Positions 3,939-53,001 of a DNA stretch of 64,000 nucleotides are shown here, in pieces (position 1 is the stretch's first letter; every line of letters starts with the position of its first letter). Position numbers and translations under genes: made by a program. Source of the stretch: a virus; the IMG/VR virus record IMGVR_UViG_3300035494_000060, positions 1-64,000 of that record, one strand, 5' to 3'. The notes under the pieces were generated by a model that was not told the origin of the DNA, did not search any database, and saw nothing but the letters and a program-made list of their open reading frames with translations.

Positions 3939-4186
3939 CAGTTCTGAGCCTTCTTCACGTGGACCCCTACCAGACGGGGCTTTTCATTCTCGATGGTGGT
4001 GGTGATGTCCAGACTGGCCACCTTGACCCCGAGGAACATCAGGTCTGCCTTGTGGTCCCGGCGCACGCCATTCACGATGCCATCGGTGATGACCAGCTCG
4101 GCGGTGTCGGGGAAGCCCCCCAGGATCGTGAGACCCTGGAAGCGTTGGCCAATCTTGGCGTGGTACAGCTCTTTGAGGTCGGTCAT
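3938..4186 (-). CDS. hypothetical protein
   Basis: ORF-track 82 aa. ATGA start/stop overlap with the upstream gene. Confidence 0.55.
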   Translation of the reverse strand: MTDLKELYHAKIGQRFQGLTILGGFPDTAELVITDGIVNGVRRDHKADLMFLGVKVASLDITTTIENEKPRLVGVHVKKAQN

Positions 4187-5037
4187 GCGCCGCTCCCTAG
4201 TTGTTCGCCGCTAAGGGCTTGAGTGATGATTGCGCCGCATGCGCGGATCAGATAGACAGCCCATCCAAGTGTGGCTGCCATGTCGGTGGTGCTCTTGATG
4301 TCCCCCAGGTGGATCGACAGGTAGCCGTCTGACTTGTTGAATCCTTGCGCAACCAGAGCGCCAGACACCTTGGGGAGCCCGGGGCCCTCCAGACGGATAG
4401 ACAGGGTGTCACCCTTCCAGCGGGCCGCACCCTTGACATCCCCCAGCATGAACACTCGGTAGACCGACCCCTTGCTGGTGGCCATGACCGGCTGGTTGAG
4501 GGCTGTAGCCTTGGCCAGGGCGCAGTCAGGTACTTGATTGTTGAGCACGCCATGGGGGGAGGACGTCGCCACGATGTACTGCTCCGTGGGGGCCTGAGTC
4601 AGGTCAAGCTCGAAGTAGGAGGGGCTACCCCCCACGCCCTTCGCTCCCCCCTTGAACTTAGCGCCCAGGGTCTGCCACGCATCCGCGAACGGGCTGGGTG
4701 CCTCGTCGCCATCCTGTGGGGGTAGGGGGTCCGGCTCCATTGGCTGGGCGATGACCGGGTGAGTGGTTTGTGTCTCCACCACGGGTATCCCTATGGAATT
4801 GCAGATCATCTGCAAGCTAGGGCTGGTGTGGTGGTTGCCCATGAACTTGTTTTTGCCGACCCCGATCACGTAGCCGGCCTTGCCCGCATTGATCGCCAGG
4901 GTCCCGATCCCGCCGTTGTCGTAGTAGGACTTCAGCGACTCATGCAGGTCGGCCAGCAGGTGGTTAGGGAGCACGCCCTTCAGCGCGCCGACCTTCTCCT
5001 GGATGGTCCCCTTGTTGATCTTGATGGTTACCGCCAT
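4183..5037 (-). CDS. hypothetical protein with MAVTIK N-terminus
   Basis: ORF 4183..5049, start reset to ATG 5037 after CATGGAGGGGCAC. N-terminus MAVTIKINKG. Lies downstream of promoter 5072..5100. Confidence 0.65.
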   Translation of the reverse strand: MAVTIKINKGTIQEKVGALKGVLPNHLLADLHESLKSYYDNGGIGTLAINAGKAGYVIGVGKNKFMGNHHTSPSLQMICNSIGIPVVETQTTHPVIAQPMEPDPLPPQDGDEAPSPFADAWQTLGAKFKGGAKGVGGSPSYFELDLTQAPTEQYIVATSSPHGVLNNQVPDCALAKATALNQPVMATSKGSVYRVFMLGDVKGAARWKGDTLSIRLEGPGLPKVSGALVAQGFNKSDGYLSIHLGDIKSTTDMAATLGWAVYLIRACGAIITQALSGEQLGSGA

Positions 5038-5071
5038 GTGCCCCTCCATGATTCCGTTTCGCTATGGGGGT

Positions 5072-5100
5072 ATTCTCGCACCCCCAGGCGTGTTCGTCAA
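5072..5100 (-). promoter_or_regulatory. conserved sigma70-like promoter P1
   Basis: TTGACG-N17-GAGAAT, followed by CATGGAGGG RBS. The TGA stop of gene 5097..5768 lies inside the -35. Confidence 0.7.
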
Positions 5101-5768
5101 ACGAATAGGCTGCGCGGGGTCTTGATCGGGGACAGGCCGATGTAGTTCTTCGCCTTGCTGCCGCCCTTGGGCGAGACTTTCGAGCTGGTGGGCGGGAAGT
5201 CCTTGAAGGCCTTGCCCGAGTGGCTGGCATGGCCATACCCGTCCCACCCCTTCGATTTGTACCCGTCAATCTTCTTGATGCCGAAGTGCTTGTGCAGGAA
5301 GTTGACCTGTGGGGTGGTCTCCACCGCGTGATCGCAATAGTGCTTGCGGACGTAGGTGATCGCGTCCTTCTCGCCGGTCATGTGGGCCACCAGGGCCGCC
5401 AGGACGGTGCCGGTGCGCCCGTGGCCACCGATGCAGCCGACAAACACCTTCTTGCCCGCCAGGATTTGAGAAGCCACGTACTCGATCATCTTGGCGAAGC
5501 GTATGGGGTCCTCCGGGGCGGTCATGTCCTTGATCAGGTACGGATGCACCTCGGGGGTTGGCTTGTCGCTGCCTGCATCGTCCCAAGGGGCCTTGCCGGC
5601 TACCGATCTGTATCCCCAATCCAGCGGGATGATGACATCGTGCTCCTGGTAGGCCGGGGTTGGGCTGGTGCACGACCCTCCGCTGACATAGTAGGTTTGG
5701 CCCCCTACCACAATCGGCATTTTCGGGTGCTTGGTGTGGCAGCCGCCACTGTACAGGTTGGTGACCAT
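5097..5768 (-). CDS. cysteine-based (CX5R) dual-specificity-type phosphatase
   Basis: P-loop VFVGCIGGHGRTG (C-X5-R-T/S-G) with an upstream acidic IKDMTAPED. AGGAG RBS before ATG 5768. Confidence 0.65.
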   Translation of the reverse strand: MVTNLYSGGCHTKHPKMPIVVGGQTYYVSGGSCTSPTPAYQEHDVIIPLDWGYRSVAGKAPWDDAGSDKPTPEVHPYLIKDMTAPEDPIRFAKMIEYVASQILAGKKVFVGCIGGHGRTGTVLAALVAHMTGEKDAITYVRKHYCDHAVETTPQVNFLHKHFGIKKIDGYKSKGWDGYGHASHSGKAFKDFPPTSSKVSPKGGSKAKNYIGLSPIKTPRSLFV

Positions 5769-5780
5769 GGTGGTTCTCCT

Positions 5781-6953
5781 TTAGGCCGTTCTGGCCAGCT
5801 TGACTACTGGGTATTTGTGGGTGCCGACGCGGGCGAACTTCTGGGTCGGGGTGGTTCCGCCAGGGGTCTTCACGTGGCCCCCCCAGACCAGATTGCACAC
5901 AGCCTCGACCACGTTGTGCTGGATGATGCCCTTGGCGCACTTCTGGAAGTCCTCCTGGGTGGACCCAGACTCCGCAAACAGGGACACAAGCATGGCCTGG
6001 TCGGAGTCCTTCGTCATCAGCGCGGTGACCTGCTTACAGGCCATGCTCTGAGCCCCGCTGCCTGACATGGTTGGCGACTTCGAACTGAAGATGCCGGTCC
6101 AGTTGACCCGAGCCTCCCAGGCCTCACCGTGCTCGGCCAGGGCCGCCTGATACACCCCGTGCGGCGTGTCGACCCCTGGGTACTTCTTGCCCTGGTTGGT
6201 GGTGACGTAGCGACCTATCTGGCCTATGCGCTGGATGTCCAGGTACAGATTGAACTCCGACCCATAGTTGCCAAACATGTAGCCCTTATTGAAGATCGGC
6301 CCATTGTTGTGGCAGAGGGTGTAGCTGGTGTCGACCATGGCATGCAGGTTGATGTCGCCATTGGCGTACTTGAACAGGGTGTCTGCGATGTTGGCCCACG
6401 GCTTGCCACCGTAGCCCCCACCAAAGACACCATGGTAGAAGATCGCCTCCAGGGTGCCGGCGAACTCGCGCAGCGGGATCGCATTCAGCTTCGGCATGGC
6501 GTTCGGGTCAAACAGCATCTGAGCCGTGCCGGAAGACCCGAGGGTGGCGGCCTTCTCGGTGTAGGTCTGGACCCAGGTCTTGATCCCAGGGAGCCCACGC
6601 TGCTGAAGGCGGTGCTTCATGTCGATGTTGCACATCAGGTCCGCCTTGTAGTGCACGTGACGGACTTCGCGGGCGATGATCATCAGCATGTAGAGGAGGG
6701 AGAGCCCGCAACAGTCCACCAGCTCGGTGTAGCACATGCGGTTGGCATTCTTCACCGCCGGGGAGGGCACCAGCTTGCCCGCATCGCGCAGGCGCCGGAC
6801 CTTCATCAGGTACTCGGTCGCCATGTAGAACCGGATCAAGGTGCCCTCGGGCGAGGCATGGGTCTTGTGCAGGTTGAATCTACGGAAGTTGGCCAGGGTG
6901 AGGTCGCTGGGGGCTGGCCGGAAAAGCGGGGAATTGAGCAGCATGTCTAGCAT
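5781..6953 (-). CDS. hypothetical protein (390 aa, orphan)
   Basis: ATG 6953 lies 8 nt after GGAGGG and downstream of P2. Gly-rich stretch FGGGYGGKPWANIAD. No family recognised. Confidence 0.7.
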   Translation of the reverse strand: MLDMLLNSPLFRPAPSDLTLANFRRFNLHKTHASPEGTLIRFYMATEYLMKVRRLRDAGKLVPSPAVKNANRMCYTELVDCCGLSLLYMLMIIAREVRHVHYKADLMCNIDMKHRLQQRGLPGIKTWVQTYTEKAATLGSSGTAQMLFDPNAMPKLNAIPLREFAGTLEAIFYHGVFGGGYGGKPWANIADTLFKYANGDINLHAMVDTSYTLCHNNGPIFNKGYMFGNYGSEFNLYLDIQRIGQIGRYVTTNQGKKYPGVDTPHGVYQAALAEHGEAWEARVNWTGIFSSKSPTMSGSGAQSMACKQVTALMTKDSDQAMLVSLFAESGSTQEDFQKCAKGIIQHNVVEAVCNLVWGGHVKTPGGTTPTQKFARVGTHKYPVVKLARTA

Positions 6954-6990
6954 TAGCGCGTCCCTCCATGTGGTGATCGCTATAGGGTCT

Positions 6991-7020
6991 ATTTTCTCAG
7001 GGCCCTGCCGTGTTCGTCAA
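6991..7020 (-). promoter_or_regulatory. conserved sigma70-like promoter P2
   Basis: TTGACG-N18-GAAAAT with an extended TGn. The upstream gene reads through it. Confidence 0.65.
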
Positions 7021-7407
7021 GCGGTTTGTGCACGCGCACGGGCGGTTGACAGGGGTGTCACCGGCGCCGCCACAGGCGGGGCAACCCTCGCCATGGCAGG
7101 TCTGGCACTCCTCATACACGAGGAAGGTGCCGCGCCCCTCGCAGTGAGTGCAATTGGTTGCAATCACCCCCAGGCGGCGGGAGTCCTCCAGGGACCCGTC
7201 TACCACCCGCACGCCAATCGCCCTGAACCTGTGGGTCAGGTGGGCATGGGTGTAGGGCATGGCCCGGCGCAGAACCTCGTCGGTGGTCAGGAGCGGGTAC
7301 AGCTCCTCCACCAGGGCTTGCAGCTGGGCCTCGGCAGCGGGGGTCCTGCGGACATCACGCACGGTACGGCACCTCGTCACGGCGCACGTTGATGTGCTTC
7401 GGGACAT
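6997..7407 (-). CDS. DnaJ-type cysteine-rich (CxxCxGxG) zinc-finger protein
   Basis: Repeats CTHCEGRG, CQTCHGEG, CPACGGAG. Start uncertain: ATG 7407, or GTG 7362 four nt before the upstream TGA. Confidence 0.55.
   Translation of the reverse strand: MSRSTSTCAVTRCRTVRDVRRTPAAEAQLQALVEELYPLLTTDEVLRRAMPYTHAHLTHRFRAIGVRVVDGSLEDSRRLGVIATNCTHCEGRGTFLVYEECQTCHGEGCPACGGAGDTPVNRPCACTNRLTNTAGP
7149..7162. repeat. 14-bp palindrome copy
   Basis: TGCAATTGGTTGCA inside 6997..7407, read as A-T-N-C-T. Confidence 0.9.
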
Positions 7408-7657
7408 CGAAGATCACGCGGGCTTGGTCCATCGCGCCACGGGTGCCCGCCCCGATCAGAATGTCCGGCATGACCTCGATCAGCTCCTGCTGGGTGATCA
7501 GGTACTCGTGGGCCGCGCCCTGGCACTCCACCTCGACGGTGAAGCTGCGGGTGGTGTGAATCTGCTTGACGGTGAGGGTCCCGCGTTGCTTCGGGTTCTG
7601 GACGTTCTCGCCCACGTGAACCTTCTTGCCGATTTCCAGACCTAGTGCGAGTGGCAT
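7355..7657 (-). CDS. hypothetical protein with CsrA-like terminal segments
   Basis: ORF 7355..7729, start reset to ATG 7657 after AAAGGAG. LALGLEIGKKVHVGENV and ARVIFDVPKHINVRRDEV resemble CsrA beta1-2 and beta4-5. Confidence 0.55.
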   Translation of the reverse strand: MPLALGLEIGKKVHVGENVQNPKQRGTLTVKQIHTTRSFTVEVECQGAAHEYLITQQELIEVMPDILIGAGTRGAMDQARVIFDVPKHINVRRDEVPYRA

Positions 7658-7661
7658 GGGG

Positions 7662-8063
7662 TCACGCTCCTTTGAAGATGGCCACGGCTGCGGTGGTGAG
7701 GCGCCAGGTGCTGCCCCCTTCCACGCCACGCCGTTCGATGGTTCGGTACACCAGGCCCTTCCCCAGCAAGATGGTCAGCTGGGAGGCGGTGTCGCTGTTG
7801 TTCTGCCTGAGCTGGACGGCCAGCTCCTTGGTAGACGCCTCGGCCAATAGCCTGAGCGCCTGCAAGCATATCGAGAGCTTGGAGCCTTGGCGAGGTAGCC
7901 GCACCTCGTTGGCCGGCAGCCCCGTGTGGATCGTGACCCCCTCGCGGGTGGTGCGCTCGATGGCACGCTGATACCCGCAGAGGCACTTGATCCAGACGTC
8001 GCCAACTGTCGTGTGCAGTCCAGCGCGTCCTGTGCACTTCGGGCACTCGATATGCAGCGTCAT
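7662..8063 (-). CDS. zinc-ribbon plus winged-helix (MarR-like) DNA-binding protein
   Basis: CPKC...CLCG at the N-terminus. C-terminal stretch LLAEASTKELAVQLRQNNSDTASQLTILLGKGLV looks like a wHTH. Confidence 0.6.
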   Translation of the reverse strand: MTLHIECPKCTGRAGLHTTVGDVWIKCLCGYQRAIERTTREGVTIHTGLPANEVRLPRQGSKLSICLQALRLLAEASTKELAVQLRQNNSDTASQLTILLGKGLVYRTIERRGVEGGSTWRLTTAAVAIFKGA

Positions 8064-8075
8064 TCATTTCCCTCT

Positions 8076-9908: not shown

Positions 9909-9944
9909 TGCCGTTCCCTCCATGTAGTGTTCGGCGTAGTGGAT

Positions 9945-9973
9945 ATTCTCGCGCTGACCCCTCCGTTCGTCAA
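9945..9973 (-). promoter_or_regulatory. conserved sigma70-like promoter P3
   Basis: TTGACG-N17-GAGAAT, then CATGGAGGGAACGGCAATG. The upstream gene's TGA stop lies inside the -35. Confidence 0.7.
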
Positions 9974-10266
9974 GCGGTGGTGAGGCCAGCCAGCTTCAGA
10001 AGGGCACGGCGGGTCTGGATGCTCATGCTATTGGTTTCGTCGGCGGTCTTCACCGCACCCCGGACCCAGCCCTTCAGGTACTCCTCCGGCTTGGTCGCTG
10101 CGATCTTCTTGGCCCGATCCAGGGTCTCGACATCCGCATCCACCTTCACCGGGTTGCCTTTGGCCTTGGCAGCCTTTGGCTTTGCCTGGGGGGTGTCCGG
10201 TGCTGGGGCCGGTGCTGGGGCCGGTGCAGGCGCAGCCGGGTCCTTCTTCTTAATCACTACAGCCAT
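9970..10266 (-). CDS. hypothetical protein with MAVVIKKK N-terminus and a (PA)n linker
   Basis: ORF 9970..10287, start reset to ATG 10266. MAVVIKKKDPAAPAPAPAPAPAPD. Confidence 0.6.
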   Translation of the reverse strand: MAVVIKKKDPAAPAPAPAPAPAPDTPQAKPKAAKAKGNPVKVDADVETLDRAKKIAATKPEEYLKGWVRGAVKTADETNSMSIQTRRALLKLAGLTTA

Positions 10267-10447
10267 CGACGCCTCCACGTACTCCATAACCCTTCATGCT
10301 TGCCGCCAGGATGGCCTCGCGGGCCGTCCCCTCTTGCGCCACGATGTCCCCCGTTTCGAGGACGACGCGCCACGTGCCGGCGCCATACTGCAACTTGCCG
10401 TAGGTGAACACCTTCGGCTGAGCCTTCTTCTTGATGGTTACTGCCAT
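10250..10447 (-). CDS. hypothetical protein with MAVTIKKK N-terminus
   Basis: ORF 10250..10555, start reset to ATG 10447, which overlaps the upstream stop (ATGGCAGTAA). Confidence 0.55.
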   Translation of the reverse strand: MAVTIKKKAQPKVFTYGKLQYGAGTWRVVLETGDIVAQEGTAREAILAASMKGYGVRGGVDGCSD

Positions 10448-10725
10448 AGCTTGATCACTCGGGCCTCCAGGGCCTTCAGTTTCTGACGGTGGGCGATTGC
10501 GACGGCCTTCCCCGACGCCCCCATGCGAGTCATGGCATCCACGACTCCCGACCATCCTGACATCGCGTCCAGGGTGAGCCGGTTGGCCTGGGCCATGCGC
10601 TCGTCACGTTCGACGGAGCCCATGTCCAAGCCTACGCGGTAGGCGGCGGATAGGGCGTCAGTGGGTGATATGGACCCCTGCTCCAGCTGTTGCAGCAGGT
10701 CTTCGAGATACGGATGCGACACCAT
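10438..10725 (-). CDS. hypothetical protein
   Basis: ORF-track 95 aa. GGGAG lies before ATG 10725. Overlaps the 3' end of the XRE gene by 68 nt. Confidence 0.5.
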   Translation of the reverse strand: MVSHPYLEDLLQQLEQGSISPTDALSAAYRVGLDMGSVERDERMAQANRLTLDAMSGWSGVVDAMTRMGASGKAVAIAHRQKLKALEARVIKLWQ

Positions 10726-10960
10726 GCTTCTCCCAGGTGAGGCGGTAGCCCAGGGCTTCCGCTACTCGGCAGATGGTGTCGAGTCGGGGATTCTTGACCT
10801 TGCCCGAGGCCCACCCATTGAGTGTGGACGCCGACACTTTAGCCGTTTCTGCGAGGTCCGTCCGCTGGTGCGCGTGGGTCTTTTCGATGTCGCGTAGCAC
10901 GAGGTCCATCAGGTCCTGCTGGCTGGCGGTGCGCTCGTGGTTCTGGCGAGTGTTGGTCAT
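10658..10960 (-). CDS. XRE/Cro-type helix-turn-helix regulator
   Basis: ORF 10658..10975, start reset to ATG 10960 after CATGGAGGG. HTH stretch DLAETAKVSASTLNGWASGK. Confidence 0.7.
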   Translation of the reverse strand: MTNTRQNHERTASQQDLMDLVLRDIEKTHAHQRTDLAETAKVSASTLNGWASGKVKNPRLDTICRVAEALGYRLTWEKHGVASVSRRPAATAGAGVHITH

Positions 10961-10987
10961 GCGTGCTCCCTCCATGTGGTGCAGTGG

Positions 10988-11257: not shown

Positions 11258-11293
11258 GGGGCCCCTCCGTAGGGGTGTGAGTCCGTAAGTCAC

Positions 11294-11322
11294 AGTCTCG
11301 CACCCCGACTTGCGTTCGTCAA
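11294..11322 (-). promoter_or_regulatory. conserved sigma70-like promoter P4
   Basis: TTGACG-N17-GAGACT. A palindrome lies 5 bp upstream. Confidence 0.7.
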
Positions 11323-11327
11323 GCGAG

Positions 11328-12564: not shown

Positions 12565-12792
12565 TCAGGGGAGTCGAGCCCACTCCCCCAAGGCTTGGTC
12601 GGTCATGTCGGTGGTGAGCTTGCTCTGGTGCTCGTCGGTTGCCACGTCGCATTTCGAGCATACCACCACCACACCTCTACGGAACTTCCCGCGCAGCTTG
12701 CTGTATCGGACCCCGAGGATCAGCTTTCCACCGCAGCGGCAGGGCTTGCTCAGGGGGTCGACGGGCTCCCGGCGGGTGATGCGGACGGCCAC
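12565..12792 (-). CDS. zinc-ribbon protein with MAVRIT N-terminus
   Basis: ORF-track 75 aa. CRCG...CSKC. Confidence 0.55.
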   Translation of the reverse strand: MAVRITRREPVDPLSKPCRCGGKLILGVRYSKLRGKFRRGVVVVCSKCDVATDEHQSKLTTDMTDQALGEWARLP

Positions 12793-26520: not shown

Positions 26521-26895
26521 CTACGCACGGGGCAACGCCCTGGAGCACGACACCCCAAAGTAGGCCATCTCATACTCAGAGGTCTGGCGCGGGTTCCAGG
26601 GCAACGGCGTGTCGCCATCCCACTTGCCGCACAAGTCCTCAGCACTTTCGAGCAGGGCTTCCACGGCCCAGTCCTCGTTGATGATCTCCTGGACCTCGGC
26701 CAGGGCGGCAATGTCGACCCCGGCGGCGATCAGTTCGTCCCCGCAGATACGTTCACGCAACTGGGCCAGCACGGCCCCGCAGGAGACCCCCTTCTGGGTG
26801 ACCACGGCAATCACGTGCATCTGCACAGGGGGCGGGCCGGCGTTGATGCTCTGCTGACCCAGGAAGACAAGGCGCAGTTCGAAGGGGCGGCTCAT
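26521..26895 (-). CDS. hypothetical protein
   Basis: C-terminal part of the composite ORF 26521..27429. Start ATG 26895 has an ATGA overlap with 26892..27173. Confidence 0.5.
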   Translation of the reverse strand: MSRPFELRLVFLGQQSINAGPPPVQMHVIAVVTQKGVSCGAVLAQLRERICGDELIAAGVDIAALAEVQEIINEDWAVEALLESAEDLCGKWDGDTPLPWNPRQTSEYEMAYFGVSCSRALPRA

Positions 26896-27173
26896 GCGAC
26901 CTCCTGAATCACTTCGTCGGCGGAACGGTCCCAGGCGGCGGACGCCGAGAGGCCCTTGGACTTGCTGACCCAGTTCAGCAGCTCGCACGCGGTCATGCGC
27001 GTGTCTACCCACAGCAGGGTATGGTCTTCTAGGTAGGCCCCACGGTTTTCTACCCCTTCGGTGGTAGCCAGCGAACGCAGACGCTTGGCCAGGGTGGCGG
27101 CGCAGCCCGGGCTCACGGCCAGGGCCAGGCGGTTGATGGGGGCGGTGTACAGCGATTTGATGCGGACGGCCAT
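26892..27173 (-). CDS. hypothetical protein with MAVRIK N-terminus
   Basis: ORF-track 93 aa. Confidence 0.55.
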   Translation of the reverse strand: MAVRIKSLYTAPINRLALAVSPGCAATLAKRLRSLATTEGVENRGAYLEDHTLLWVDTRMTACELLNWVSKSKGLSASAAWDRSADEVIQEVA

Positions 27174-28947: not shown

Positions 28948-29250
28948 TCAAATGGCCCGTCCACCACGCTGGTGGTAGGCCAACAGGCGGGCCGCAGTCT
29001 CCTTGACCCAGGCGTCTGCCGGCAAGTGGTAGCCGGTGGAGCCGTCGAAGTCCTTGAAGGCCTCGTCATAGAAGCCAATCTCGCACCAGCCCCATTTGGC
29101 CAGATCGTTGGCCCACTCCTGCCAGCGGTCATCACTGACGATGGCCTCGTCCAGGTGGTAGTAGAGGTAGGAGTGGATCAGCATCTGTGACCGGCGGCGC
29201 TTGATCAGCTCGGGGGTCACTCGCTCCTTTCGCTTGATGGTGACCGCCAT
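28948..29250 (-). CDS. hypothetical protein with MAVTIKRK N-terminus
   Basis: ORF-track 100 aa. Confidence 0.6.
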   Translation of the reverse strand: MAVTIKRKERVTPELIKRRRSQMLIHSYLYYHLDEAIVSDDRWQEWANDLAKWGWCEIGFYDEAFKDFDGSTGYHLPADAWVKETAARLLAYHQRGGRAI

Positions 29251-44562: not shown

Positions 44563-45429
44563 TTACATGGTCACTTCGAGGTCCACGCCAGGGAAGCAGG
44601 TCTCGAAGATTTCCAGCACCTTTTCGACACCGGCGGCTTTCATCAGTTCCGCCAGGGAGGGCTGCTTGGTCTTGTTGCTGCCGCCGGTCGCGTAGGACTG
44701 GCAGATGTGCTCCAGGGCCACCGCGTCGTACTCGGTGCCGTAGTCTTCCTTCGCCTTGTCGACGGTGGCTCGGATGACTTCCTTCTGGTCGGTGTGAACC
44801 TTGAAGGTCAGGGTGGTGATCGGGGAGCTGGGGGCCTCCGGCATTTCTGGAGCCGTGCCAGGAGTCTTCAGCGACTTGATGTACTCGATCAGCTCCAGGA
44901 CGGTCATGGTCTGAGCCTTCTCGACCAGGGCGTCCACGTTGTCGTTGTTCAGGATCGGGGACAGTTCCTTGAGCTTGGTCCAGCCCAGGCCCTGCACCTT
45001 CTCCCAGGCCACGCCCGACTCCACCAGATCGTTGTAAATCTGGATCAAGTACATCGCCTTGCGGTATTGCAGGCCGTACTCGGCATTGATGAACGCCTTG
45101 AAGCTATCGTGGCCGTGGCCTTCCCAGTAGCTCTTGGTCTGGATCAGTGCCAGGACGCCACCCAACTTGAAGTAGGTCTCGTCGACCGACTCCAGCAGGT
45201 CCTTGGCCGAGCTGATCGCCGCGTCCTCAGCCATGTTCTCGATTTCAGAGACAATGTTGACGATGACGTCCGTCTCTGCCGTGGCCTTGGCTTTCGCGGT
45301 GGCCTTCTTGGCCGCAGCCGGCTTCTTCTTCACGGCAGTGGTGGTGCCCGCTTCGGACTCAACCGCTGCTGCTTCGGTGGTGCCAACTGCTTCTTCTGCT
45401 GCTTCGGGTTTCTTCTTGGAAATTGCCAT
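44563..45429 (-). CDS. hypothetical protein with MAISKKK N-terminus and a Lys/Ala-rich tract
   Basis: ORF-track 288 aa. Lies downstream of P21. No family recognised. Confidence 0.65.
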   Translation of the reverse strand: MAISKKKPEAAEEAVGTTEAAAVESEAGTTTAVKKKPAAAKKATAKAKATAETDVIVNIVSEIENMAEDAAISSAKDLLESVDETYFKLGGVLALIQTKSYWEGHGHDSFKAFINAEYGLQYRKAMYLIQIYNDLVESGVAWEKVQGLGWTKLKELSPILNNDNVDALVEKAQTMTVLELIEYIKSLKTPGTAPEMPEAPSSPITTLTFKVHTDQKEVIRATVDKAKEDYGTEYDAVALEHICQSYATGGSNKTKQPSLAELMKAAGVEKVLEIFETCFPGVDLEVTM

Positions 45430-45511: not shown

Positions 45512-45525
45512 TGCAATTAGTTGCA
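45512..45525. repeat. 14-bp palindrome copy
   Basis: TGCAATTAGTTGCA, 9 bp upstream of the P21 -35. Contains the TAA stop of the RuvC-like gene. Confidence 0.9.
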
Positions 45526-46068
45526 GATTTTTTCCTTATGGAGAGCGTGCACCGCTTCCATATTCACCTGAGGCAAACCCAAGTTGGCCCCGTCATACGC
45601 CCGAGCGAAGAATGCCAGACCAACCGCGTCTGCTTCGTTATCGGTCGCGCAGGATACCCCAAAGCGCTGAAAAACGCTGAGCAGCATCATGTCCTTTTTC
45701 GCATTGCCCTTGCCGGAGACGAACTTCTTCAGGCTCGTCGGCGGCACTTCCAGGTAGTCCAGGCCGCACTGCATAAGGCGTAGACGCAGGATCGTGCCCA
45801 GTTCCACCATCGTCGCCTGGTTGAAGTTGGAGGCGAAACTGTAGCCCTCGATCACTGCTCGTGTGACCTTGTGGCGTGCAATCAGTTCCTCGATCTGATC
45901 TGCCAGCCACAGGGCCCGGGGGATTCCGGTCTTGCCCTTGGGGGTCTTGATTTCCCCCGACAGCTCCAGGCGGTCGCCTACGGTGACGGCATAGCCGCAC
46001 TTGGTTGAGGGGTCGACGGCCAGGGTGACCACCTCCCCTTTTGGCTTCTGTTTGATCGTGATGGCCAC
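45517..46068 (-). CDS. RuvC-like Holliday-junction resolvase
   Basis: GTG 46068 overlaps the upstream TAG by 1 nt, giving the N-terminus (M)AITIKQKPKG. LAVDPSTKCGYAV, VIEGYSF, DNEADAVGLAFFA. Confidence 0.75.
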   Translation of the reverse strand: MAITIKQKPKGEVVTLAVDPSTKCGYAVTVGDRLELSGEIKTPKGKTGIPRALWLADQIEELIARHKVTRAVIEGYSFASNFNQATMVELGTILRLRLMQCGLDYLEVPPTSLKKFVSGKGNAKKDMMLLSVFQRFGVSCATDNEADAVGLAFFARAYDGANLGLPQVNMEAVHALHKEKICN

Positions 46069-46991: not shown

Positions 46992-47389
46992 TGGGCACCC
47001 CCTGTCAGGCGCAGGAAGTCAGCCTCGGGGATGGCGACCCAGGCGCCTTCCCGGCGGACCACCCCGGATTTGTCCGTGAACAGCAGCTGGAGTGCCGGGA
47101 CCTGGTTGAGAGAATTGGCCTCGTGGCTGATCTTCAGCAGCCACTCGTGCTTGACGCTCAGGCTGTCCTTGATGGTCTGCTTGTGCTCCAGGCGGAAGGC
47201 GAGGGCGGGGGACAGGAACACCCCATCCCCCTTGTCCCCATCGGTGGCGCCGGAGTTGGCGGTGGCCTTGGCGCCGATCCTGGCCATGGTACGGCTCTCG
47301 GTGTACTTGCCCAGGCAGTCGCCAGCCCCGAGCTTGCCCTTCCTGGCCACGGTCTTGCCCCTGAGGGTGGTGGGCTTGAGTGCCGACAT
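46988..47389 (-). CDS. hypothetical protein (possible small PD-(D/E)XK-type nuclease)
   Basis: ORF-track 133 aa. GATDGDKGD...RLEHKQT is weakly nuclease-like. Confidence 0.45.
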   Translation of the reverse strand: MSALKPTTLRGKTVARKGKLGAGDCLGKYTESRTMARIGAKATANSGATDGDKGDGVFLSPALAFRLEHKQTIKDSLSVKHEWLLKISHEANSLNQVPALQLLFTDKSGVVRREGAWVAIPEADFLRLTGGAQ

Positions 47390-48489
47390 CAGTCATCCCC
47401 CTCCTGGGCATCCACCATGGTCGCGCCCTCCAGTAGCCGGCGGCAGACGTCCGCCCTCACCTTATCCAGCAGACCCGGGGTGCCCATCACGTGCTCCTTG
47501 ATCTGCTTGATGGTGGGGAACTCCTCACCGTAGAACTGGAACTTGGTGCCCACCTTATCGAGCAGCCCGAGGCCTTTCAGCTTGTGCGTCAGCGGGTTCC
47601 AGTCGTCGCACTCGCCCACGGCCAGCCCCTTGTGCGGGATGACCACCATTTTGTACTCGAAGTTGGTCTGGAGGATCGGCACCTTCCACTTGCGGATGAT
47701 GCAGGTGGTGACCTTCATGGCTGGCAGGACCGGATTGACCTCCTTGACCACTTCGTTCTTGCCGTAGAGGCGGATGGTCATCGAGCTGGCGAACATCAGC
47801 GGTTTGCCCCCGGGCATGGTCTCCGGGTCACCGTGCATCACCCCGATCTTGAGGCGAATCTGGTTGACCGCGATGAAGGTGGGGAACCGGCCCTGCTTCT
47901 TCGCTTTCATCTGCCCCAGGACGATCTTGCGGGCCAGCTTGCCCACCACCAGGGAGGCCCCCCCGACGATGGCGCCCTCGGCGGACTTCTCGGTCTCGGC
48001 GTGGGTGACCAGGGCGGCGATGCTGTCGAAGATGATCAGCCCGATGTTGTCCGCCTCCATGAGCATGTCAGCGATGTCCACGGCCTGCTCGGCAAAGTCA
48101 GGTTGGATGATGTGCAGCTTGTTGAGGTTGACGCCCATCTTCTTGGCCCAGGCCGGGTCGAAGGCATTCTCCAGGTCGACGAACACGCACTCCTCGTCGG
48201 GCCAGAGGCGCTGGTGGTTGGCAATGGTCTTCAGAATCAGGTTGGTCTTGCCCGAGGACTCCGGGCCATAGACGATGCTGATCTTTCCTCGGGGGAATCC
48301 ACCCCCGGTGGCGATGTCGACATCGAGCAACCCGGTCGGGATTCGCTCAACGACCACGTTCTCGGCCTCGCTGGCCAGCAGAGAGACGCCATCCCCCAGC
48401 TTGTCCTTGACCCCTTTGAGCAGGCTGCTGACGCTGCTTTTGGAGAGCGGCTTGGCCTCTCCGTTCTTACCCTTCACGCTTACTGCCAT
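47389..48489 (-). CDS. RecA-family recombinase
   Basis: ORF 47389..48681, start reset to ATG 48489 (MAVSVKGKNG). LDVDIATGGGFPRGKISIVYGPESSGKT and GLIIFDSIAAL. Confidence 0.85.
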   Translation of the reverse strand: MAVSVKGKNGEAKPLSKSSVSSLLKGVKDKLGDGVSLLASEAENVVVERIPTGLLDVDIATGGGFPRGKISIVYGPESSGKTNLILKTIANHQRLWPDEECVFVDLENAFDPAWAKKMGVNLNKLHIIQPDFAEQAVDIADMLMEADNIGLIIFDSIAALVTHAETEKSAEGAIVGGASLVVGKLARKIVLGQMKAKKQGRFPTFIAVNQIRLKIGVMHGDPETMPGGKPLMFASSMTIRLYGKNEVVKEVNPVLPAMKVTTCIIRKWKVPILQTNFEYKMVVIPHKGLAVGECDDWNPLTHKLKGLGLLDKVGTKFQFYGEEFPTIKQIKEHVMGTPGLLDKVRADVCRRLLEGATMVDAQEGDD

Positions 48490-48509
48490 GGTGCCCCCAA
48501 ATGCCCCAG

Positions 48510-48938
48510 TCAGGCCTGATTCAACACTTCTTCCATCTTGCGGTTCACCCAGTCCTGACCGAAGGCTAGCGCCGTGTCTATGCCCTCCAGAGGGACCGGG
48601 ATGTTGATGCTCACCTGCACCTTGAAGCTGTTGTAGTCCCCCAGGTTGCGGGTGGCCCCAGCACTGAAGCCCACGTTGCACAGTGGCTGGTCGGAGGAAA
48701 CGGAGTACAGGTGCTCCTCGGTGAAGGTTTCAGCCCCCGACTTCTTCTCGTGGGTGGTGATGGTCGCCTTGGCGTTCTTGGACTTCAGGTCCCCGCCCGC
48801 GCCTTGCTCGTCCCAGGGCATGGATTCGGCAGGGGCTGCGCCCTTCTTCTTCGCCACAGCGCCGCTGGGCTTCTTCTCTTGGGTGTCGTCAGGCGGGGTG
48901 GCGCCGGCTTTGGTCTTGAGCTTAATGGCCACTGTCAT
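48510..48938 (-). CDS. hypothetical protein with MTVAIKLK N-terminus
   Basis: ORF 48510..49007, start reset to ATG 48938. Confidence 0.55.
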   Translation of the reverse strand: MTVAIKLKTKAGATPPDDTQEKKPSGAVAKKKGAAPAESMPWDEQGAGGDLKSKNAKATITTHEKKSGAETFTEEHLYSVSSDQPLCNVGFSAGATRNLGDYNSFKVQVSINIPVPLEGIDTALAFGQDWVNRKMEEVLNQA

Positions 48939-49287
48939 GCTCCTTGTAGAAGGCGGTGATCTTTGCAACATCTGAGGCGGTGAACAGGCGCGCATGGTAC
49001 TCGCCAATCTCCGGCCATGGGATGTTGCCCTTGGTGCCGTGCCACTTCAGGGACTCCACGGTCTTTCCGACCTTGGCCGCCACCTCGGAAGTGGTGAACG
49101 TGTTCGCCGGGCGAGCCGGCTTGGCAGTTGCGCCCGCATTGCGACGCTTTTCCTGCACGGCCTCCAGTTGGGCCTTGCGGTACTCGGGGTCGTTCTTGTA
49201 GCGCTCGCGGCGCTTGCGGTTGTATTCGTCTCGGTTCTTGTCGTACCAGCGGGTGAAGGTGCTGGTGCCTGCGGTGTCGTTACTCAT
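48922..49287 (-). CDS. putative MerR/excisionase-type HTH protein
   Basis: Part of ORF 48922..49755. Start ATG 49287. FTTSEVAAKVGKTVESLKWH. Confidence 0.5.
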   Translation of the reverse strand: MSNDTAGTSTFTRWYDKNRDEYNRKRRERYKNDPEYRKAQLEAVQEKRRNAGATAKPARPANTFTTSEVAAKVGKTVESLKWHGTKGNIPWPEIGEYHARLFTASDVAKITAFYKEHDSGH

Positions 49288-49301
49288 GGGGTGGGTTCCT
49301 T

Positions 49302-50711
49302 TCAGATAGTGATTTTCTTCACCGGCGCCTGCTTGGATTTGTAGAACTTCATGCGCTGGTTGTGAAAGCCCGTCAGTACCGTGGAATCCCGATCTACTAG
49401 GTCTATGACTGTCGGGTCCTTCTTGCCCTCGTAGGGCCTCAGAATGCGCCCGACAACCTGCAACACGTCCGACTTCGGACTCACCAGCACCGCTGTATCG
49501 AACCAGGGGAGGTTCACGGCTTCGCTGGTCATCTGGTACGTGGTGCAGAGGACCGTCTTCTCTGCTGCCTCCTGGCGTGCCGCCTCCTTCATCCCGCCGG
49601 TGAGGTAGCCAACCTCCCCAGCCCCCAACACCTTGGCTATCTCGGCCCCCACGGCCTTCATGTAGTCCAGGGTGGTGAAGAACAGGATGATCCTGCGCCC
49701 GCGCTCGGCGGATATGCAGGTCAGCTTGACCGCGATCTGCGTCCGCCCGTGGCACTTGATCATGCCCTTCTCAAGCATGACGGTGCGCCCGTGCGGAGGT
49801 TCGACCTTGGTCAGTTTCTTCTCCTTGGTCAGCTTGTTGACCACCAGCCGGCGCGGCAGCTTGTACGGGGTGTCGACCGCCAGCACCTTGAATGGCAGCG
49901 GCATTGCCTCGGACTTCACCAGTGTCGGCCCGATGAACATCTTGAACAGCCGCTCGCGGCGATCCTTGCGCTCGGGGCGCGCTGACAGGCCGATCATGCT
50001 GCGGCAGCTGAGGTTCCACATGACCTGGGTGAAGTAGTCGGAGCCCAGGCGGTGCACCTCGTCGAAGATGGCCAGCCCGAACGCTTCATAGACCCAGGAC
50101 GGATACCGGCCCGGCTTGCATAGCGACTGGAGCATGGCGATCACGACTGGCCTACCCTGCACGTTGCACTTGTCGCCCTGTATCAGGCCGATGTCTGTGC
50201 GGTGCAGGCCGAGCACGACCTCCATGGCCTCGACCCATTGCCCGATGATCATTTCCTTGTTGACCACGATCAGGGTGGAACGTTTGCAATTAAGTGCAAT
50301 CGCGGACCCGACATAGGTCTTACCGAAGCCGGTCGGGGCCTCGATGATGTGGTTCCTGCCGGCCAGGAGCAGGGAGGTGCTCTCGTCAACCACGCGCTGC
50401 TGCTCGGCGTCCTTGGCCTTGAACGTGCCCCCGAACTGCACCGGGATGCCCCGACTACGGCGGTCGTCATCACAGGGCGGCACGGCAGCGGGCGGGACGT
50501 AGATCAACCCCTCCTCGCGCCGGTAGGCCTGGTAGAACTTGTCGTCGTCCTCCGCACCCGGGTCAGCGAACATGTTCTTGAAGGTGAGCGCCTTGGCCAG
50601 CGCCGGGCTGTACTTGTAGGCCGCGCCCAGGTCGATGAACAGGGGCGGCTCGTGGGTGATAAGGGAGGGGGCTTTCACCCCGCCCCCCTGCTTCGCGTGC
50701 TTAAAGATCAT
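49302..50711 (-). CDS. SF2 DEAD/DEAH-box helicase
   Basis: ORF 49302..50915, start reset to ATG 50711. Motif I APTGFGKT, motif II FDEVH, motif III GLSARP. Confidence 0.8.
   Translation of the reverse strand: MIFKHAKQGGGVKAPSLITHEPPLFIDLGAAYKYSPALAKALTFKNMFADPGAEDDDKFYQAYRREEGLIYVPPAAVPPCDDDRRSRGIPVQFGGTFKAKDAEQQRVVDESTSLLLAGRNHIIEAPTGFGKTYVGSAIALNCKRSTLIVVNKEMIIGQWVEAMEVVLGLHRTDIGLIQGDKCNVQGRPVVIAMLQSLCKPGRYPSWVYEAFGLAIFDEVHRLGSDYFTQVMWNLSCRSMIGLSARPERKDRRERLFKMFIGPTLVKSEAMPLPFKVLAVDTPYKLPRRLVVNKLTKEKKLTKVEPPHGRTVMLEKGMIKCHGRTQIAVKLTCISAERGRRIILFFTTLDYMKAVGAEIAKVLGAGEVGYLTGGMKEAARQEAAEKTVLCTTYQMTSEAVNLPWFDTAVLVSPKSDVLQVVGRILRPYEGKKDPTVIDLVDRDSTVLTGFHNQRMKFYKSKQAPVKKITI
50285..50298. repeat. 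14-bp palindrome copy
   Basis: TGCAATTAAGTGCA inside the helicase gene, read as I-A-L-N-C-K. Confidence 0.9.
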
Positions 50712-51477
50712 CGTCGCTGACGCCGCCGGCTGCCGGCTCGTCTTCGAAGGCGGCGTTGGACGGAGTACCCGGACCACCGAAGCCCTGCTCGCGCAGTTCC
50801 TTGGCCGACACGTAGGGCAGCTCCTCCTCGTAGTTCGCCGGGGTGAAGTCGGCGTCCTTGTAGTGAGCGGCCAGCTCCTCCAGCGTGTGCTTCTCGCTGA
50901 AGTCGAACAGCCCACCGACCGCCGCGTCCTTGTCGCTCTCGCGTGACACGTCGAAGGTGCAGCCCGCCAGACCGCCGCGCTTGGTAGCGATCTTCTGGAG
51001 CATCTTGTAGGTGTTGCGCTTGGCGATCAGCAGCTTCTTCACGTCCTTGTACACCTTGTTCTTCCCCTTGTACGGGGTGTGCACGATGACCGTGAACGCC
51101 GCCACCAGGGAAGGCTCGTCGCCACCCTCGCAGATCGGGCACGGCTCCTCGTCCGAGGTGCAAACGAAGTGGTTGTTCCAGCTGCCATTGATGTGCAGGC
51201 GGTGCTCGCGGTAGATCGGCGCCATGAGCACGCCATCGTCATCGAGGTCGCCGTCGACGAAGGTAATCTCGGACTCCTCGCCGGGTTTCAGGAAGAAACG
51301 GAACAGCTTGGAGGACTCGGCCTTCTTCTGTTCGGCTTTCTTCTCTTCCTCTTCGAAGGCGTGGGCGGCTTTCTTGCCCGCCATCATCCAACTGGGCTTT
51401 TTGCCCGCGCCGCCGGTGGCAGCTGCTTTGGTCTTGACGGCTTCTTCTGTGGTTTTGCTCTTTTTCGTAATTGCCAT
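50701..51477 (-). CDS. T4 gp32-like zinc-containing ssDNA-binding protein
   Basis: FRFFLKPG...EHRLHINGSWNNHFVCTSDEEPCPICEGG gives a His+3Cys pattern. Acidic tail DEPAAGGVSDDDL. N-terminus MAITKKSK. Confidence 0.65.
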   Translation of the reverse strand: MAITKKSKTTEEAVKTKAAATGGAGKKPSWMMAGKKAAHAFEEEEKKAEQKKAESSKLFRFFLKPGEESEITFVDGDLDDDGVLMAPIYREHRLHINGSWNNHFVCTSDEEPCPICEGGDEPSLVAAFTVIVHTPYKGKNKVYKDVKKLLIAKRNTYKMLQKIATKRGGLAGCTFDVSRESDKDAAVGGLFDFSEKHTLEELAAHYKDADFTPANYEEELPYVSAKELREQGFGGPGTPSNAAFEDEPAAGGVSDDDL

Positions 51478-51513
51478 GATATGGCTCCTGTGAGACCGGA
51501 ATGGTCGGCTGGC

Positions 51514-51542
51514 AGTGTATGACTTGACAATCTGTTTGTCAA
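51514..51542 (-). promoter_or_regulatory. conserved sigma70-like promoter P22
   Basis: TTGACA-N17-TACACT. Confidence 0.6.
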
Positions 51543-52508
51543 TCAGTCCAGCAAGTCGGACAGCACTCGCTGGATTTCCTCGATGGGGGTGTCACCCGCA
51601 TCCCCCTCTTCTTCGGTGGGCTCCACGTGGTCGATGTGCGCCGTGTGGCCCAGGTGCTTGTCGATCAGCTCCCTGGCCATGTCCCCGGCTTTCCCCGCAT
51701 CGAACCACGTGATGATGTGATGGGCTGACCGCAGCCGGCGCAGCTTCAGCGGCGGCATGTTCACGGAGTGGGCGGCAAGGACGTTGGTGTTGACGTGCAT
51801 GATCTTGGCGAGGTCGAAGCCACCCTCGGTGACGATCACCGGGTAGCCCAGGTCGACATTCTGCTCATTCAGCCAGATGTGGGGGTTGCTGTGCTTCTCG
51901 GGCCCGTGGGTGTAGCCCAGCCAGCGCAGCTCACTCTCGCCGGTGACGTCCCGCCCATGGAGACCGCACAGGGTCCCGGCCCAGTCCCGGATCGGAAAGC
52001 AGAGGCGCTTGCGCTTGGTGTCGAAGCGCAGGTCCAGGGCCTTGGCCACCTCCAGGCTGATGCCGCGCTGAGCCAGATAGGGGTGGTTGACACCGGGCAA
52101 GAACGTGGCCAGCCACTCCTCGGGGAACGGGTGCAGCTTGGTGATGCCGGTGCCGCTCGCGGCTTCCTCGTAGTCGGGGATGTCGTAGTCGCTCGACGCC
52201 AGCTCCTCGTCCGCCAGCAGCTCCATGGCCGCTTTGAAGTCCACCACCGCACAGTCCTCGGGGGAGTGCAGCTTGACCTCGCGCATGTCCATCACCAGGT
52301 CGTGAAGGTCCCCATGGGTGCCGCAGCTGAAGCAGTTAAAGTGCGACTGCCCCTCAGTGACACTAATTGCAAACGAGGGCTTGCGGTCGAAGCCCTTCTG
52401 GTGCTTCCAGGGGGCGTAGGGGCAGCGCCCGAGGACCCACCCCGGACGCTTACCGACTTGCTCCAGTCCCATCGCCTTGTAGAACTTGAGGACGTCGTTT
52501 TCGAGCAT
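51543..52508 (-). CDS. DNA primase (zinc finger plus TOPRIM)
   Basis: CPYAPWKHQ...HFNCFSCGTHGD zinc motif. TOPRIM motifs VIVTEGGFD and ITWFDAGKAG. Confidence 0.8.
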   Translation of the reverse strand: MLENDVLKFYKAMGLEQVGKRPGWVLGRCPYAPWKHQKGFDRKPSFAISVTEGQSHFNCFSCGTHGDLHDLVMDMREVKLHSPEDCAVVDFKAAMELLADEELASSDYDIPDYEEAASGTGITKLHPFPEEWLATFLPGVNHPYLAQRGISLEVAKALDLRFDTKRKRLCFPIRDWAGTLCGLHGRDVTGESELRWLGYTHGPEKHSNPHIWLNEQNVDLGYPVIVTEGGFDLAKIMHVNTNVLAAHSVNMPPLKLRRLRSAHHIITWFDAGKAGDMARELIDKHLGHTAHIDHVEPTEEEGDAGDTPIEEIQRVLSDLLD

Positions 52509-52512
52509 CGGG

Positions 52513-53001
52513 TCAGGCCTTCGGCACGTACTTCAGGGTGCGGCTTTCGGTGGTGACCTTCTCGATGTACTTGGAGGCCTCGTCCTCGCTCAGGGTCTTG
52601 TCGATGGCGGACAGGGAGACATCGCAGAGGTCGAAGAACAGGCCCTCCTGGATGCCCTCGATGGCGTGGTACAGGCCTTCCTTGTCCTTGATGACGCGGG
52701 ATTGGCGCCCGGCGCTGAACACGATGGCGTACTTGTCGCCCTCGATGGTCACCGGAACCGAGGTGTCGGCCAGGGCATCGGCGTTGGCCGCCTTGACCTC
52801 CTTGATCAGCTTGGCCTGCTGATCGGTCAGCCCCTTGAGTTGGGCCTTCAGCTCAGCGATCTGGAGGTCCAGGCCGGCGGCCGCGTCCACGGCTTCGGCT
52901 ACGGGGTCGTGGGTCAGTTGCTTCTTGAGGTCCTTGGCCGCGCTGCCCTTCTTGCTGGTGCTGGTGGCTTTGGTGGTCTTCTTCTGGATCGTGACGGTCA
53001 T
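52513..53001 (-). CDS. hypothetical coiled-coil protein with MTVTIQKK N-terminus
   Basis: ORF 52513..53016, start reset to ATG 53001 after CATGGAGGG. Lies downstream of P23. Confidence 0.6.
   Translation of the reverse strand: MTVTIQKKTTKATSTSKKGSAAKDLKKQLTHDPVAEAVDAAAGLDLQIAELKAQLKGLTDQQAKLIKEVKAANADALADTSVPVTIEGDKYAIVFSAGRQSRVIKDKEGLYHAIEGIQEGLFFDLCDVSLSAIDKTLSEDEASKYIEKVTTESRTLKYVPKA

Follow-up and report, generated by a model that had tools for sequence, protein, structure and literature searches.

Tagged N-Termini and Their Genomic Setting

We analyzed a 64,000-nt stretch of viral DNA (positions 1 to 64,000 of IMG/VR record IMGVR_UViG_3300035494_000060; hereafter the window), which has a GC content of 63% and nearly all of its genes on the minus strand. 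An initial annotation, made from the letters, had reported that twelve of its proteins begin with a common short basic peptide, MAVTIKKK, here called the tag. All twelve N-terminal peptides were recovered where they had been placed, each on the minus strand, and their carriers include RecA, a RuvC-like resolvase, and a gp32-like single-stranded DNA-binding protein (SSB). They are given below (SD, Shine–Dalgarno sequence; f4, f5, and f9 are protein families from clustering):

5014..5037, minus strand: MAVTIKIN, on a 284-aa protein (4183-5037) upstream of the DNA polymerase gene; GGAGG 5 nt upstream
10243..10266, minus strand: MAVVIKKK, on a 98-aa orphan (9970-10266), followed by an (AP)n linker; start ambiguous against ATG 10287
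10424..10447, minus strand: MAVTIKKK, on a 65-aa orphan (10250-10447); start overlaps the end of the upstream gene
12769..12792, minus strand: MAVRITRR (GTG start), on a 75-aa Cys-rich orphan (12565-12792); weakest start
27150..27173, minus strand: MAVRIKSL, on a 93-aa orphan (26892-27173); AAGGAG SD
29227..29250, minus strand: MAVTIKRK, on a 100-aa Nlig-Ia (DNA-ligase N-terminal-like) protein (28948-29250), whose domain begins at residue 13
45406..45429, minus strand: MAISKKKP, a degenerate tag, on a member of family f5 (44563-45429; phrog_17202)
46045..46068, minus strand: MAITIKQK (GTG start), on the RuvC-like resolvase (45517-46068), whose RuvC domain begins at residue 16
48466..48489, minus strand: MAVSVKGK, on RecA (47389-48489), as an N-terminal extension before the RecA N-helix
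48915..48938, minus strand: MAIKLKTK (GTG 48932) or MTVAIKLK (ATG 48938), on a member of family f4 (48510-48932/48938)
51454..51477, minus strand: MAITKKSK, with a LAST-like KKSKTT, on the gp32-like SSB (50701-51477)
52978..53001, minus strand: MTVTIQKK, on a member of family f9 (52513-53001), the gene between DnaB and primase

The exact sequence MAVTIKKK occurs only at 10447, the others being variants of M-[A/T]-[V/I]-x-[I/V/K]-K/T/Q-x-K. The carriers are otherwise unrelated: with the first 10 residues removed, all mutual BLASTP E-values among the 12 proteins exceed 0.1. The window matches a 60-kb contig from a public sequencing run, and independent gene calls on that contig place the same starts at 53001, 51477, 48489, 46068 (GTG), and 45429. 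For f4, both callers favor GTG 48932 (SD spacing 7) over ATG 48938 (SD spacing 1), the tag being kept either way. The start at 10266 has GGAGG 6 nt before it, yet our own caller chose the upstream ATG at 10287; that at 12792 is a GTG without SD, 1 nt past the upstream stop. Miscalled starts, with the tag lying in a 5' untranslated region, were considered and rejected in view of the proper SD spacing, the in-frame conserved SSB segment, and the agreement of independent callers. As to the carriers themselves, the C-terminal part of the 284-aa protein is 37% identical to gp077 of Stenotrophomonas phage DLP_5. The 98-aa and 65-aa neighbors (9970-10447, minus strand) overlap by 17 nt, the second overlapping the end of the upstream gene by 10 nt, and the 98-aa protein has an (AP)7 repeat directly behind the tag. 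Five further N-termini on the minus strand are tag-like without a small second residue, namely MLIKLKRP (17918), MKIKRIGS (28927), MKIFPITKKG (33061), MKFVQKVK (Cas4-like, 46991), and MLYVITKSK (DNA polymerase, 3422); given such variants, the tagged genes of the window may number more than twelve.

Enrichment and Conservation across a Phage Clade

Tag-like N-termini are in excess over internal positions both in the window and in the clade to which it belongs. The broad pattern used was ^M[AGPST][VIL].[VILMFW] plus one or more K/R among residues 6-10; it is matched by 11 of the 113 genes called by a motif-blind program, against 0.99 expected from internal positions (binomial p = 6e-9; p = 0.002 when four candidate starts per gene are allowed). 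Nine of these 11 are among the twelve listed above, and the remaining two (8063, 63944) are probably chance. A pattern closer to the one first described yields 10 matches against 0.06 expected.

For the clade we sampled 78 loci around SSB homologues in IMG/VR, with one gene caller throughout, and retained 52 non-redundant genomes; these are siphoviruses of 80-120 kb with 37-63% GC. The tag stands on 185 of their 1605 genes (11.5%) and on none of the 232 genes of more distant relatives that share the SSB-primase-RecA core, with decoy rates of 1.2% at internal Met-anchored positions and 0.8% at any internal position. The clade consensus is M-[A>P>G]-[V/L/I]-[K/T/S]-[I/F/L/V]-K-K-K, of which MA[V/I]TIKKK is the window version. 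Position by position, the profile reads as follows:

Position 2: A 55%, P 16%, G 11%, T 9%, S 8%
Position 3: V 41%, L 37%, I 22%
Position 4: K 36%, T 21%, S 12%
Position 5: I 37%, F 19%, L 16%, V 12%, M 8%, W 8%
Positions 6, 7, and 8: K 32%, K 52%, and K 42%
Position 9 onward: rich in A/P/T

At the tag-profile positions of untagged N-termini, Lys stands at about 10%. SSB homologues from many contigs, only 45-55% identical, nearly all begin MA-[VIL]-x-[FWMI]-x-K-K-G. In annotated relatives the tag is found on the same syntenic genes, with a flavor specific to each genome. For instance, DLP_5 (59% GC) has MGVKMG, MGVSWLKTG, MGVKMGK, and MGVKLPG on f9, SSB, f4, and UvsX/RecA, respectively (consensus MGVK[MIL]G); the tags of Rhodobacter phage RcZahn include MALSFAKKGK, MPLKISTKK, and MAVKVKSK; and those of Vibrio phage KarBoss (46% GC) are MALNFVKK, MAIKVVKS, MAIHMTTKIKK, MGLKILKS, MAVKIVKK, MAVKILRT, and MAITIMRGGK. 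The shared N-terminus is real, reaches the whole phage clade, and is more widespread than was first seen.

The large terminase of the window shares 50-57% identity with its counterparts in RcZahn, Rhizobium phage RHph_TM16, a group of Vibrio siphoviruses of ~80 kb, and the Stenotrophomonas phages DLP_3, DLP_5, and Summit, and a search with the gp32-like SSB returns these phages again. No near-identical phage came up in a Megablast search of the phage collection, and a single-protein RecA scan of IMG/VR gave no matches. Two observations concern these relatives. DLP_5 is annotated with a suppressor tRNA (tRNA-Sup-CTA) together with tRNA-Glu, tRNA-Gly, and tRNA-Ser (L164 270-861 = DLP_5 50270-50861). 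In L083, a close relative (L083 3064-5463, corresponding to window 49302-50711), the SF2 helicase gene encodes 799 aa against 469 aa in the window; since it matches the Hom_end and Hom_end_hint families, the difference is attributed to an intein insertion that the window does not have.

Carrier Families and Their Position

In the direction of transcription the locus comprises lysis genes, a classical AAA ATPase, a helix-turn-helix (HTH) protein, f12, DnaB, f9, primase, the gp32-like SSB, an SF2 helicase, f11, f4, RecA, f7, a Cas4-like nuclease, RuvC, f5, and terminase, followed by many small genes and then a block with a kinase, ThyX, and a family-A-type DNA polymerase. Families were built by BLAST clustering, and tagged members were counted under a strict pattern (^M[AG][VIL].[VILMFW]); the broad pattern gives higher counts. 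The main carriers are SSB (25/62 members tagged), f4 (21/55), RecA (21/54), and f9 (21/48). The Cas4-like nuclease (6/57), RuvC (4/47), a ligase-like protein, and small orphans carry the tag only sporadically, f11 has it in 4/45 members, and primase (0/62), the SF2 helicase (0/57), f7 (0/50), f12 (0/44), and the AAA ATPase (0/36) are never tagged. Altogether, 41 families carry the tag in at least one genome. Because it sits on different proteins in different lineages, repeated gain and loss are indicated. Untagged RecA proteins begin directly at the RecA N-terminal helix; thus, in RecA the tag is an N-terminal extension. Of the main carriers, f4 and f9 match no Pfam or PHROGs family, save a PHROGs family of unknown function for f4; profile searches of both against PDB sequences gave no matches; all their members run against Pfam gave only coiled-coil noise, for f9; and a large-database search with f9 returned only two close relatives.

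Position within the genome follows the same division. In 80 further loci centered on the AAA gene (the 80 listed of 108 AAA matches), the 10 kb upstream of that gene, with tail, lysis, and small genes, have the tag on 11 of 677 genes (1.6%), against 83 of 390 (21%) in the stretch from DnaB to RecA, 4-10 kb downstream. Window tags beyond the replication module lie partly in a DNA-metabolism setting, as at 5037 (near the DNA polymerase) and 29250 (Nlig-Ia); the others are on orphans.

This distribution bears on the possibility that the tag is a capsid-targeting sequence (CTS), by which the tagged proteins would be packaged and injected as are the internal proteins of T4. There is precedent in T4 for a conserved N-terminal peptide on diverse proteins (PMC3012670), and in DLP_5 the portal and gp008 are tagged. 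Nonetheless, the carriers are overwhelmingly replication and recombination enzymes (RecA, SSB, RuvC, and the like), the structural and lysis region stands at the background rate just given, and no prohead-protease site (L/I-x-E) follows the tag, positions 9-12 being rich in A/P/T/K with E at 6% or less. We consider packaging the least credible of the functions weighed here.

A Motif of the Peptide

The initial annotation had held that conservation acts on the peptide and not on a copied block of DNA, and the clade bears this out: codons differ synonymously between copies within and between genomes, the motif spans 37-63% GC, and substitutions follow the hydrophobic (V/I/L/F/M/W) and basic (K/R) classes. 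It had also entertained a role in translation initiation, through Lys codons that would lower mRNA structure, and this part does not hold. In its general form, the idea is that the tag codons act as an enhancer of initiation or early elongation, or as an RNA operator (low structure, a downstream box, or binding of a RegA- or gp32-like repressor), the peptide being a by-product. Lys-rich and A-rich codons behind AUG do enhance translation (lambda cI MSTKKKP, the downstream box), many T4 replication genes belong to one translational regulon (RegA), and a dip in GC content at third codon positions (GC3) is seen at codons 2-8 in all genes of these phages. Yet tagged genes (-0.11) do not surpass untagged ones (-0.13) in this dip, and it is absent from the tagged genes of the window. 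Synonymous sites vary freely; the motif is identical at 37% and 63% GC; and the amino-acid classes respected include W (TGG) in place of I/L/V/F, with Pro as residue 2 in whole lineages. Most copies start at codon 2, but related ones lie off the start codon: f5 has S-L-x-L-L-K-K-G at residues ~4-12, the Cas4-like nuclease has [WF]LKKA, and long SSBs have a second copy, PSW[ML]KKG, 20-60 residues in. Furthermore, primase, the SF2 helicase, and the genes of the structural region, including the annotated capsid-region genes of DLP_5, are without it. An mRNA-level explanation is therefore very improbable. Given the free synonymous variation and the lack of extra AT-enrichment near tagged starts, the tag is a peptide-level short linear motif at the N-terminus of replication and recombination proteins.

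The "promoter cassette" that the initial annotation had mentioned is also genuine. The motif CATGGAGGG occurs 22 times in the window, always on the coding strand, against 1.4 expected, and about 18-19 copies follow a near-identical sigma70-type promoter of the form (c)cgcTTGACGAACa, about 17 nt, gcGAGAATa. The cassette consists of this promoter, a leader of ~30 nt (often GC-rich and hairpin-like), and CATGGAGGG, which serves as SD and stands 5-9 nt ahead of the start. We rejected the view that the tag stems from a copied DNA cassette or from a recombination linker, since codons differ between copies and the promoter/SD cassette is independent of it. DLP_5 has an analogous CAATGGAGTGA before many starts. 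The ends of the cassette motif in the window are:

5050, 6970, 9924, 13973, 16960, 21441, 22009, 22824, 26451, 28166, minus strand: promoter-cassette motif
30015, 31033, 33485, 34801, 35590, 45446, 53017, 56908, 58149, minus strand: promoter-cassette motif, continued

Disordered Tethers and Co-Variation within Genomes

The tag is usually followed by what looks like a flexible tether. Residues 10-30 behind it are enriched in P/A/K/T/S/E/G/Q (66% vs 52%, p = 6e-34) and depleted in hydrophobic residues. In f4 a linker of 0 to ~90 residues separates the tag from a conserved C-terminal domain of ~70 residues, the window member having a linker of ~60 aa. In f9 the tag of L083 reads MAVTIQKK against MTVTIQKK in the window; the linkers of the two proteins differ by many substitutions and indels, and their C-terminal domains are almost the same. 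An AlphaFold monomer of the window SSB leaves residues 1-25 disordered (pLDDT about 45), followed by a helix and then a confident core.

The tags of unrelated families also resemble one another within each genome: MPV[TK]I.KK is found on unrelated families of L030 and L056 (37-38% GC), MG[VL] in DLP_5, L016, and L022, MAL in L007, L018, L020, L047, and L052, and MA[VI] in the window. Identity between families of one genome is 0.56 at residue 2, against 0.37 when permuted (z = 5.8; 0/2000 permutations), and 0.52 at residue 3, against 0.35 (z = 4.9; 0/2000 permutations), and the SSB N-terminus co-varies with the other tags of its genome (0.52 vs 0.36; 0/5000 permutations), p-values that are all overstated because there are fewer independent lineages than genomes. 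At least 3-4 separate lineages show this likeness. Only small residues (A, G, P, S, or T) stand at position 2, and a small residue there permits removal of the initiator Met.

Such genome-specific shifts are relevant to two further explanations. According to the first, the tag would be read by a conserved host factor, either as a DnaK or trigger-factor site or as an N-degron for ClpXP or Lon that times the turnover of replication proteins. Tags are terminal and disordered, their hydrophobic core with basic flanks is reminiscent of DnaK-binding motifs, and T-I-K-I and A-I-K-L resemble ClpX N-motif 1 (e.g. TNTAKI in lambda O and STAKL in Dps). The ClpX match is loose, however, and the idea gives no reason for a restriction to replication and recombination proteins; moreover, host chaperones and proteases are conserved, so that the shifts between MPV, MGV, MAL, and MAV are unexpected unless they track the host. 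We regard a host reader as quite unlikely. According to the second, the tag would be a direct nucleic-acid-binding or electrostatic sticker that binds ssDNA or the acidic tail of the SSB and so gathers its carriers at replication intermediates or within a condensate, no specific folded receptor being needed. The alternation of hydrophobic or aromatic residues (W/F in many tags) with Lys, which reaches 52% and 42% at positions 7 and 8, would suit such a role, as would the nature of the carriers, which are DNA-transaction proteins, the acidic SSB tail ending in D-x-L or IPF, and the occurrence of the LAST sequence of T4 gp32 in the ssDNA-binding trough as well (PMC12893549). A sticker predicts neither the genome-specific co-variation of residues 2-3 nor a small residue 2, though, and other DNA-binding proteins (primase, SF2 helicase, f7) are never tagged. 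It strikes us as unlikely, if somewhat less so than a host factor.

A Probable Docking Peptide and Its Candidate Partners

Among the roles that the initial annotation had listed, a recognition or assembly signal tied to replication best fits the motif, whose carriers are mostly replication and recombination proteins. We suggest that the tag is a common docking peptide for one shared partner, and put the probability of this function at about 0.6. Placed at the very end of an N-terminal tether that is usually disordered, the motif would bring the replication and recombination proteins that carry it to a single partner in the DNA-metabolism machinery of the phage. As that partner we tentatively favor the SSB filament, a candidate that we rank above the AAA ATPase and that is possible rather than probable. 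The preferred partner would thus be the gp32-like SSB bound to ssDNA, whose own N-terminal peptide the client proteins would mimic, so as to plug into, cap, or displace SSB filaments.

The SSB is preferred because its N-terminus bears the motif where T4 gp32 bears its cooperativity (LAST) peptide. The protein is indeed gp32-like, with a conserved H/CPIC zinc site and T4 gp32 (8gme_A) as its top PDB fold match, and in the window it begins MAITKKSKTT. In addition, the [WF]LKK[AG]-type variants of the Cas4-like nuclease and f5 resemble the SW[LM]KKG segment of the SSB. Docking of the tag on the core of the SSB in cis was rejected, given the disordered residues of the AlphaFold monomer, which says nothing on docking in trans. 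The family also has an acidic C-terminal tail (window 50701-50780) with a conserved terminal D-x-L, some members ending in IPF like the tip of Escherichia coli SSB, an indication that the SSB has a further recruitment motif, of the conventional kind.

Several observations weigh against this proposal. Long-type SSBs hold the tag and the conserved SWxKKG segment together; the tag may therefore have been added to the SSB rather than constitute its cooperativity element. In tag-less outgroups the SSB retains MSWYKKG, and the other proteins are untagged. Behind the window tags at 5037, 27173, 29250, and on RuvC there is little or no linker. Some carriers have no obvious link to ssDNA, among them several window orphans and the tagged portal and gp008 of DLP_5. 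In a mirror-tree comparison no family's divergence tracks that of the tags, the correlations being weak with none standing out (partial r = 0.00 for the SSB), and the overstatement of the concordance p-values belongs here too.

The main contender for the part of receptor is another product of the locus:

56947..58077, minus strand: classical AAA ATPase, candidate receptor, with a degenerate D1-like module and a p97-D2-like module predicted to be active, pore loop K-W-Q-G-E-A-E

Here, as the initial annotation had also suggested, the tag would be read by the p97/Cdc48-like AAA ATPase of the phage, which would remodel or strip tagged DNA-bound or filament-forming proteins (SSB, RecA, loaders, nucleases). 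The best PDB matches of the enzyme are the D2 modules of p97, Cdc48, VAT, and AFG2 (1e-29), and the family keeps Walker A, pore loop 1 (K-[YW]-x-G-E-S-E), Walker B, and the arginines of the second region of homology, as befits a classical AAA translocase with an intact pore loop. Its gene heads the replication module and is itself never tagged; tags lie on free, disordered termini, the usual entry point of AAA unfoldases; and the gene accompanies the tag in every tag-bearing contig but one (by the SSB-centered locus or the listed AAA matches), no tag-less distant contig (60-92 kb) appearing among the 80 listed of 108. This last argument loses force in that the listed matches are 80 of 108 and, above all, in that co-occurrence is confounded with phylogeny: f9, f12, and the HTH protein show the same pattern, and as tag-less relatives are without these three as well, the association between AAA ATPase and tag is inseparable from phylogeny. 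Nor does the enzyme offer an evident site for the tag. Residues 1-150 form a degenerate AAA+ module without Walker A, with no recognizable peptide-binding adaptor domain, and a substrate-binding adaptor was rejected for this reason. The mirror-tree signal is nil (partial r = 0.04), and we know of no precedent for a phage that unfolds its own SSB or RecA. A receptor role for the AAA ATPase thus appears doubtful, more so than one for the SSB filament. Net charge was of no help in choosing among the candidate receptors. DLP_5 and RcZahn have a second AAA ATPase paralogue elsewhere in the genome.

Two other functions were rejected. A beta-clamp-binding motif is not supported, as the tag has no Gln and no match to the consensus, and the phage encodes a family-A-type polymerase of its own. 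Phosphorylation by the phage kinase is not supported either, as position 4 is S/T in only about one third of tags.

Whichever partner is involved, the motif offers a handle to assign f4, f9, f5, and the orphans to a DNA-metabolism network, a simple pull-down peptide for cultivable relatives, and help in placing start codons in these genomes. The clade infects alpha- and gammaproteobacteria and includes Stenotrophomonas, Vibrio, Rhizobium, and Rhodobacter phages together with many uncultured ones. If the SSB filament is the receptor, mimicry of a cooperativity peptide would constitute a new means of handing ssDNA over from SSB to recombinase, nuclease, and helicase loader; if the AAA ATPase is, a phage would for the first time be seen to encode a segregase that has its own dedicated substrate tags.

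Comparison with Known Systems

The statement of the initial annotation that no phage N-terminal tag of this form is described needs qualification, given that the T4 CTS and the gp32 LAST peptide exist; it stands for the motif itself, which, like any tag common to replication and recombination proteins, is not described in the literature that we found. In T4 the internal proteins (IPI-III, Alt) share an N-terminal CTS that is read by a single phage structure (PMC3012670). Like the tag, it is a conserved peptide of ~10 residues at the N-terminus of otherwise unrelated phage proteins. Its carriers, on the other hand, are packaged head proteins from which the prohead protease cuts it, whereas here the carriers act in replication and recombination and no cleavage motif is found. 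Downstream boxes and Lys-codon enhancers (lambda cI MSTKKKP, T7 gene 10 leader) are similar in lying directly behind the start codon and in their Lys-rich codons; they differ from the tag, which shows conservation by amino-acid class, synonymous freedom, independence of GC content, and no added AT bias at third positions.

The tags recognized by AAA+ machines (ESCRT-III MIM/Vps4, ssrA and the ClpX N-motifs, MuA/ClpX) are likewise disordered terminal peptides on polymer-forming or DNA-bound proteins, and here too the module has beside it the gene for a classical AAA ATPase whose pore loop is intact; yet this enzyme has no MIT-like adaptor, and co-occurrence alone links it to the tag. One may nevertheless conceive, though we think it rather doubtful, of a private tag-and-receptor system in which the compact p97-like AAA ATPase would recognize the genome-specific peptide on SSB, RecA, loaders, and nucleases and thereby extract or recycle them from nucleoprotein complexes, with co-evolution of tag and receptor lineage by lineage. 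Viral DNA metabolism would then have its own counterpart of Vps4/ESCRT-III or of chromatin extraction by p97.

Replication and recombination proteins are usually organized around hubs through short terminal motifs, such as the C-terminal tip of SSB and the clamp-binding motifs. The tag shares much with these hub motifs (SSB C-terminal DDDIPF, clamp-binding QL[SD]LF, PIP boxes), being short, terminal, tethered, and present on many unrelated proteins of one pathway; in fact, with its length of no more than 10 residues, its disordered setting, and its conservation on unrelated members of a single pathway, it has the properties by which a hub motif is recognized. Hub motifs are read by one hub and are easily gained and lost, and the tag comes and goes by family and genome and is kept in L083 while the linker behind it has indels. 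It differs in being N-terminal and basic/hydrophobic, with no Gln and no acidic character, and matches none of QL[SD]LF, DDDIPF, and QxxLxxFF. Thus, the clade appears to use a different, N-terminal hub motif, common to the SSB, the recombinase, and several unknown proteins, which co-evolves within each genome.

The closest parallel for the favored partner is the LAST peptide (KRKST) at the N-terminus of T4 gp32, which binds the core of the neighboring gp32 on the DNA and so confers cooperativity (PMC12893549). In both cases a short basic peptide occupies the extreme N-terminus of a gp32-type SSB, ahead of its core. LAST is of the (K/R)3(S/T)2 type, to which KKSKTT of the window SSB may be compared, and the clade consensus phi-x-phi-K-K-K/G adds a hydrophobic part that is absent from LAST. 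Finally, the peptide is here not limited to the SSB and extends to those 41 families, including RecA, f4, f9, RuvC, and the Cas4-like nuclease, and long SSBs have a second, internal copy.

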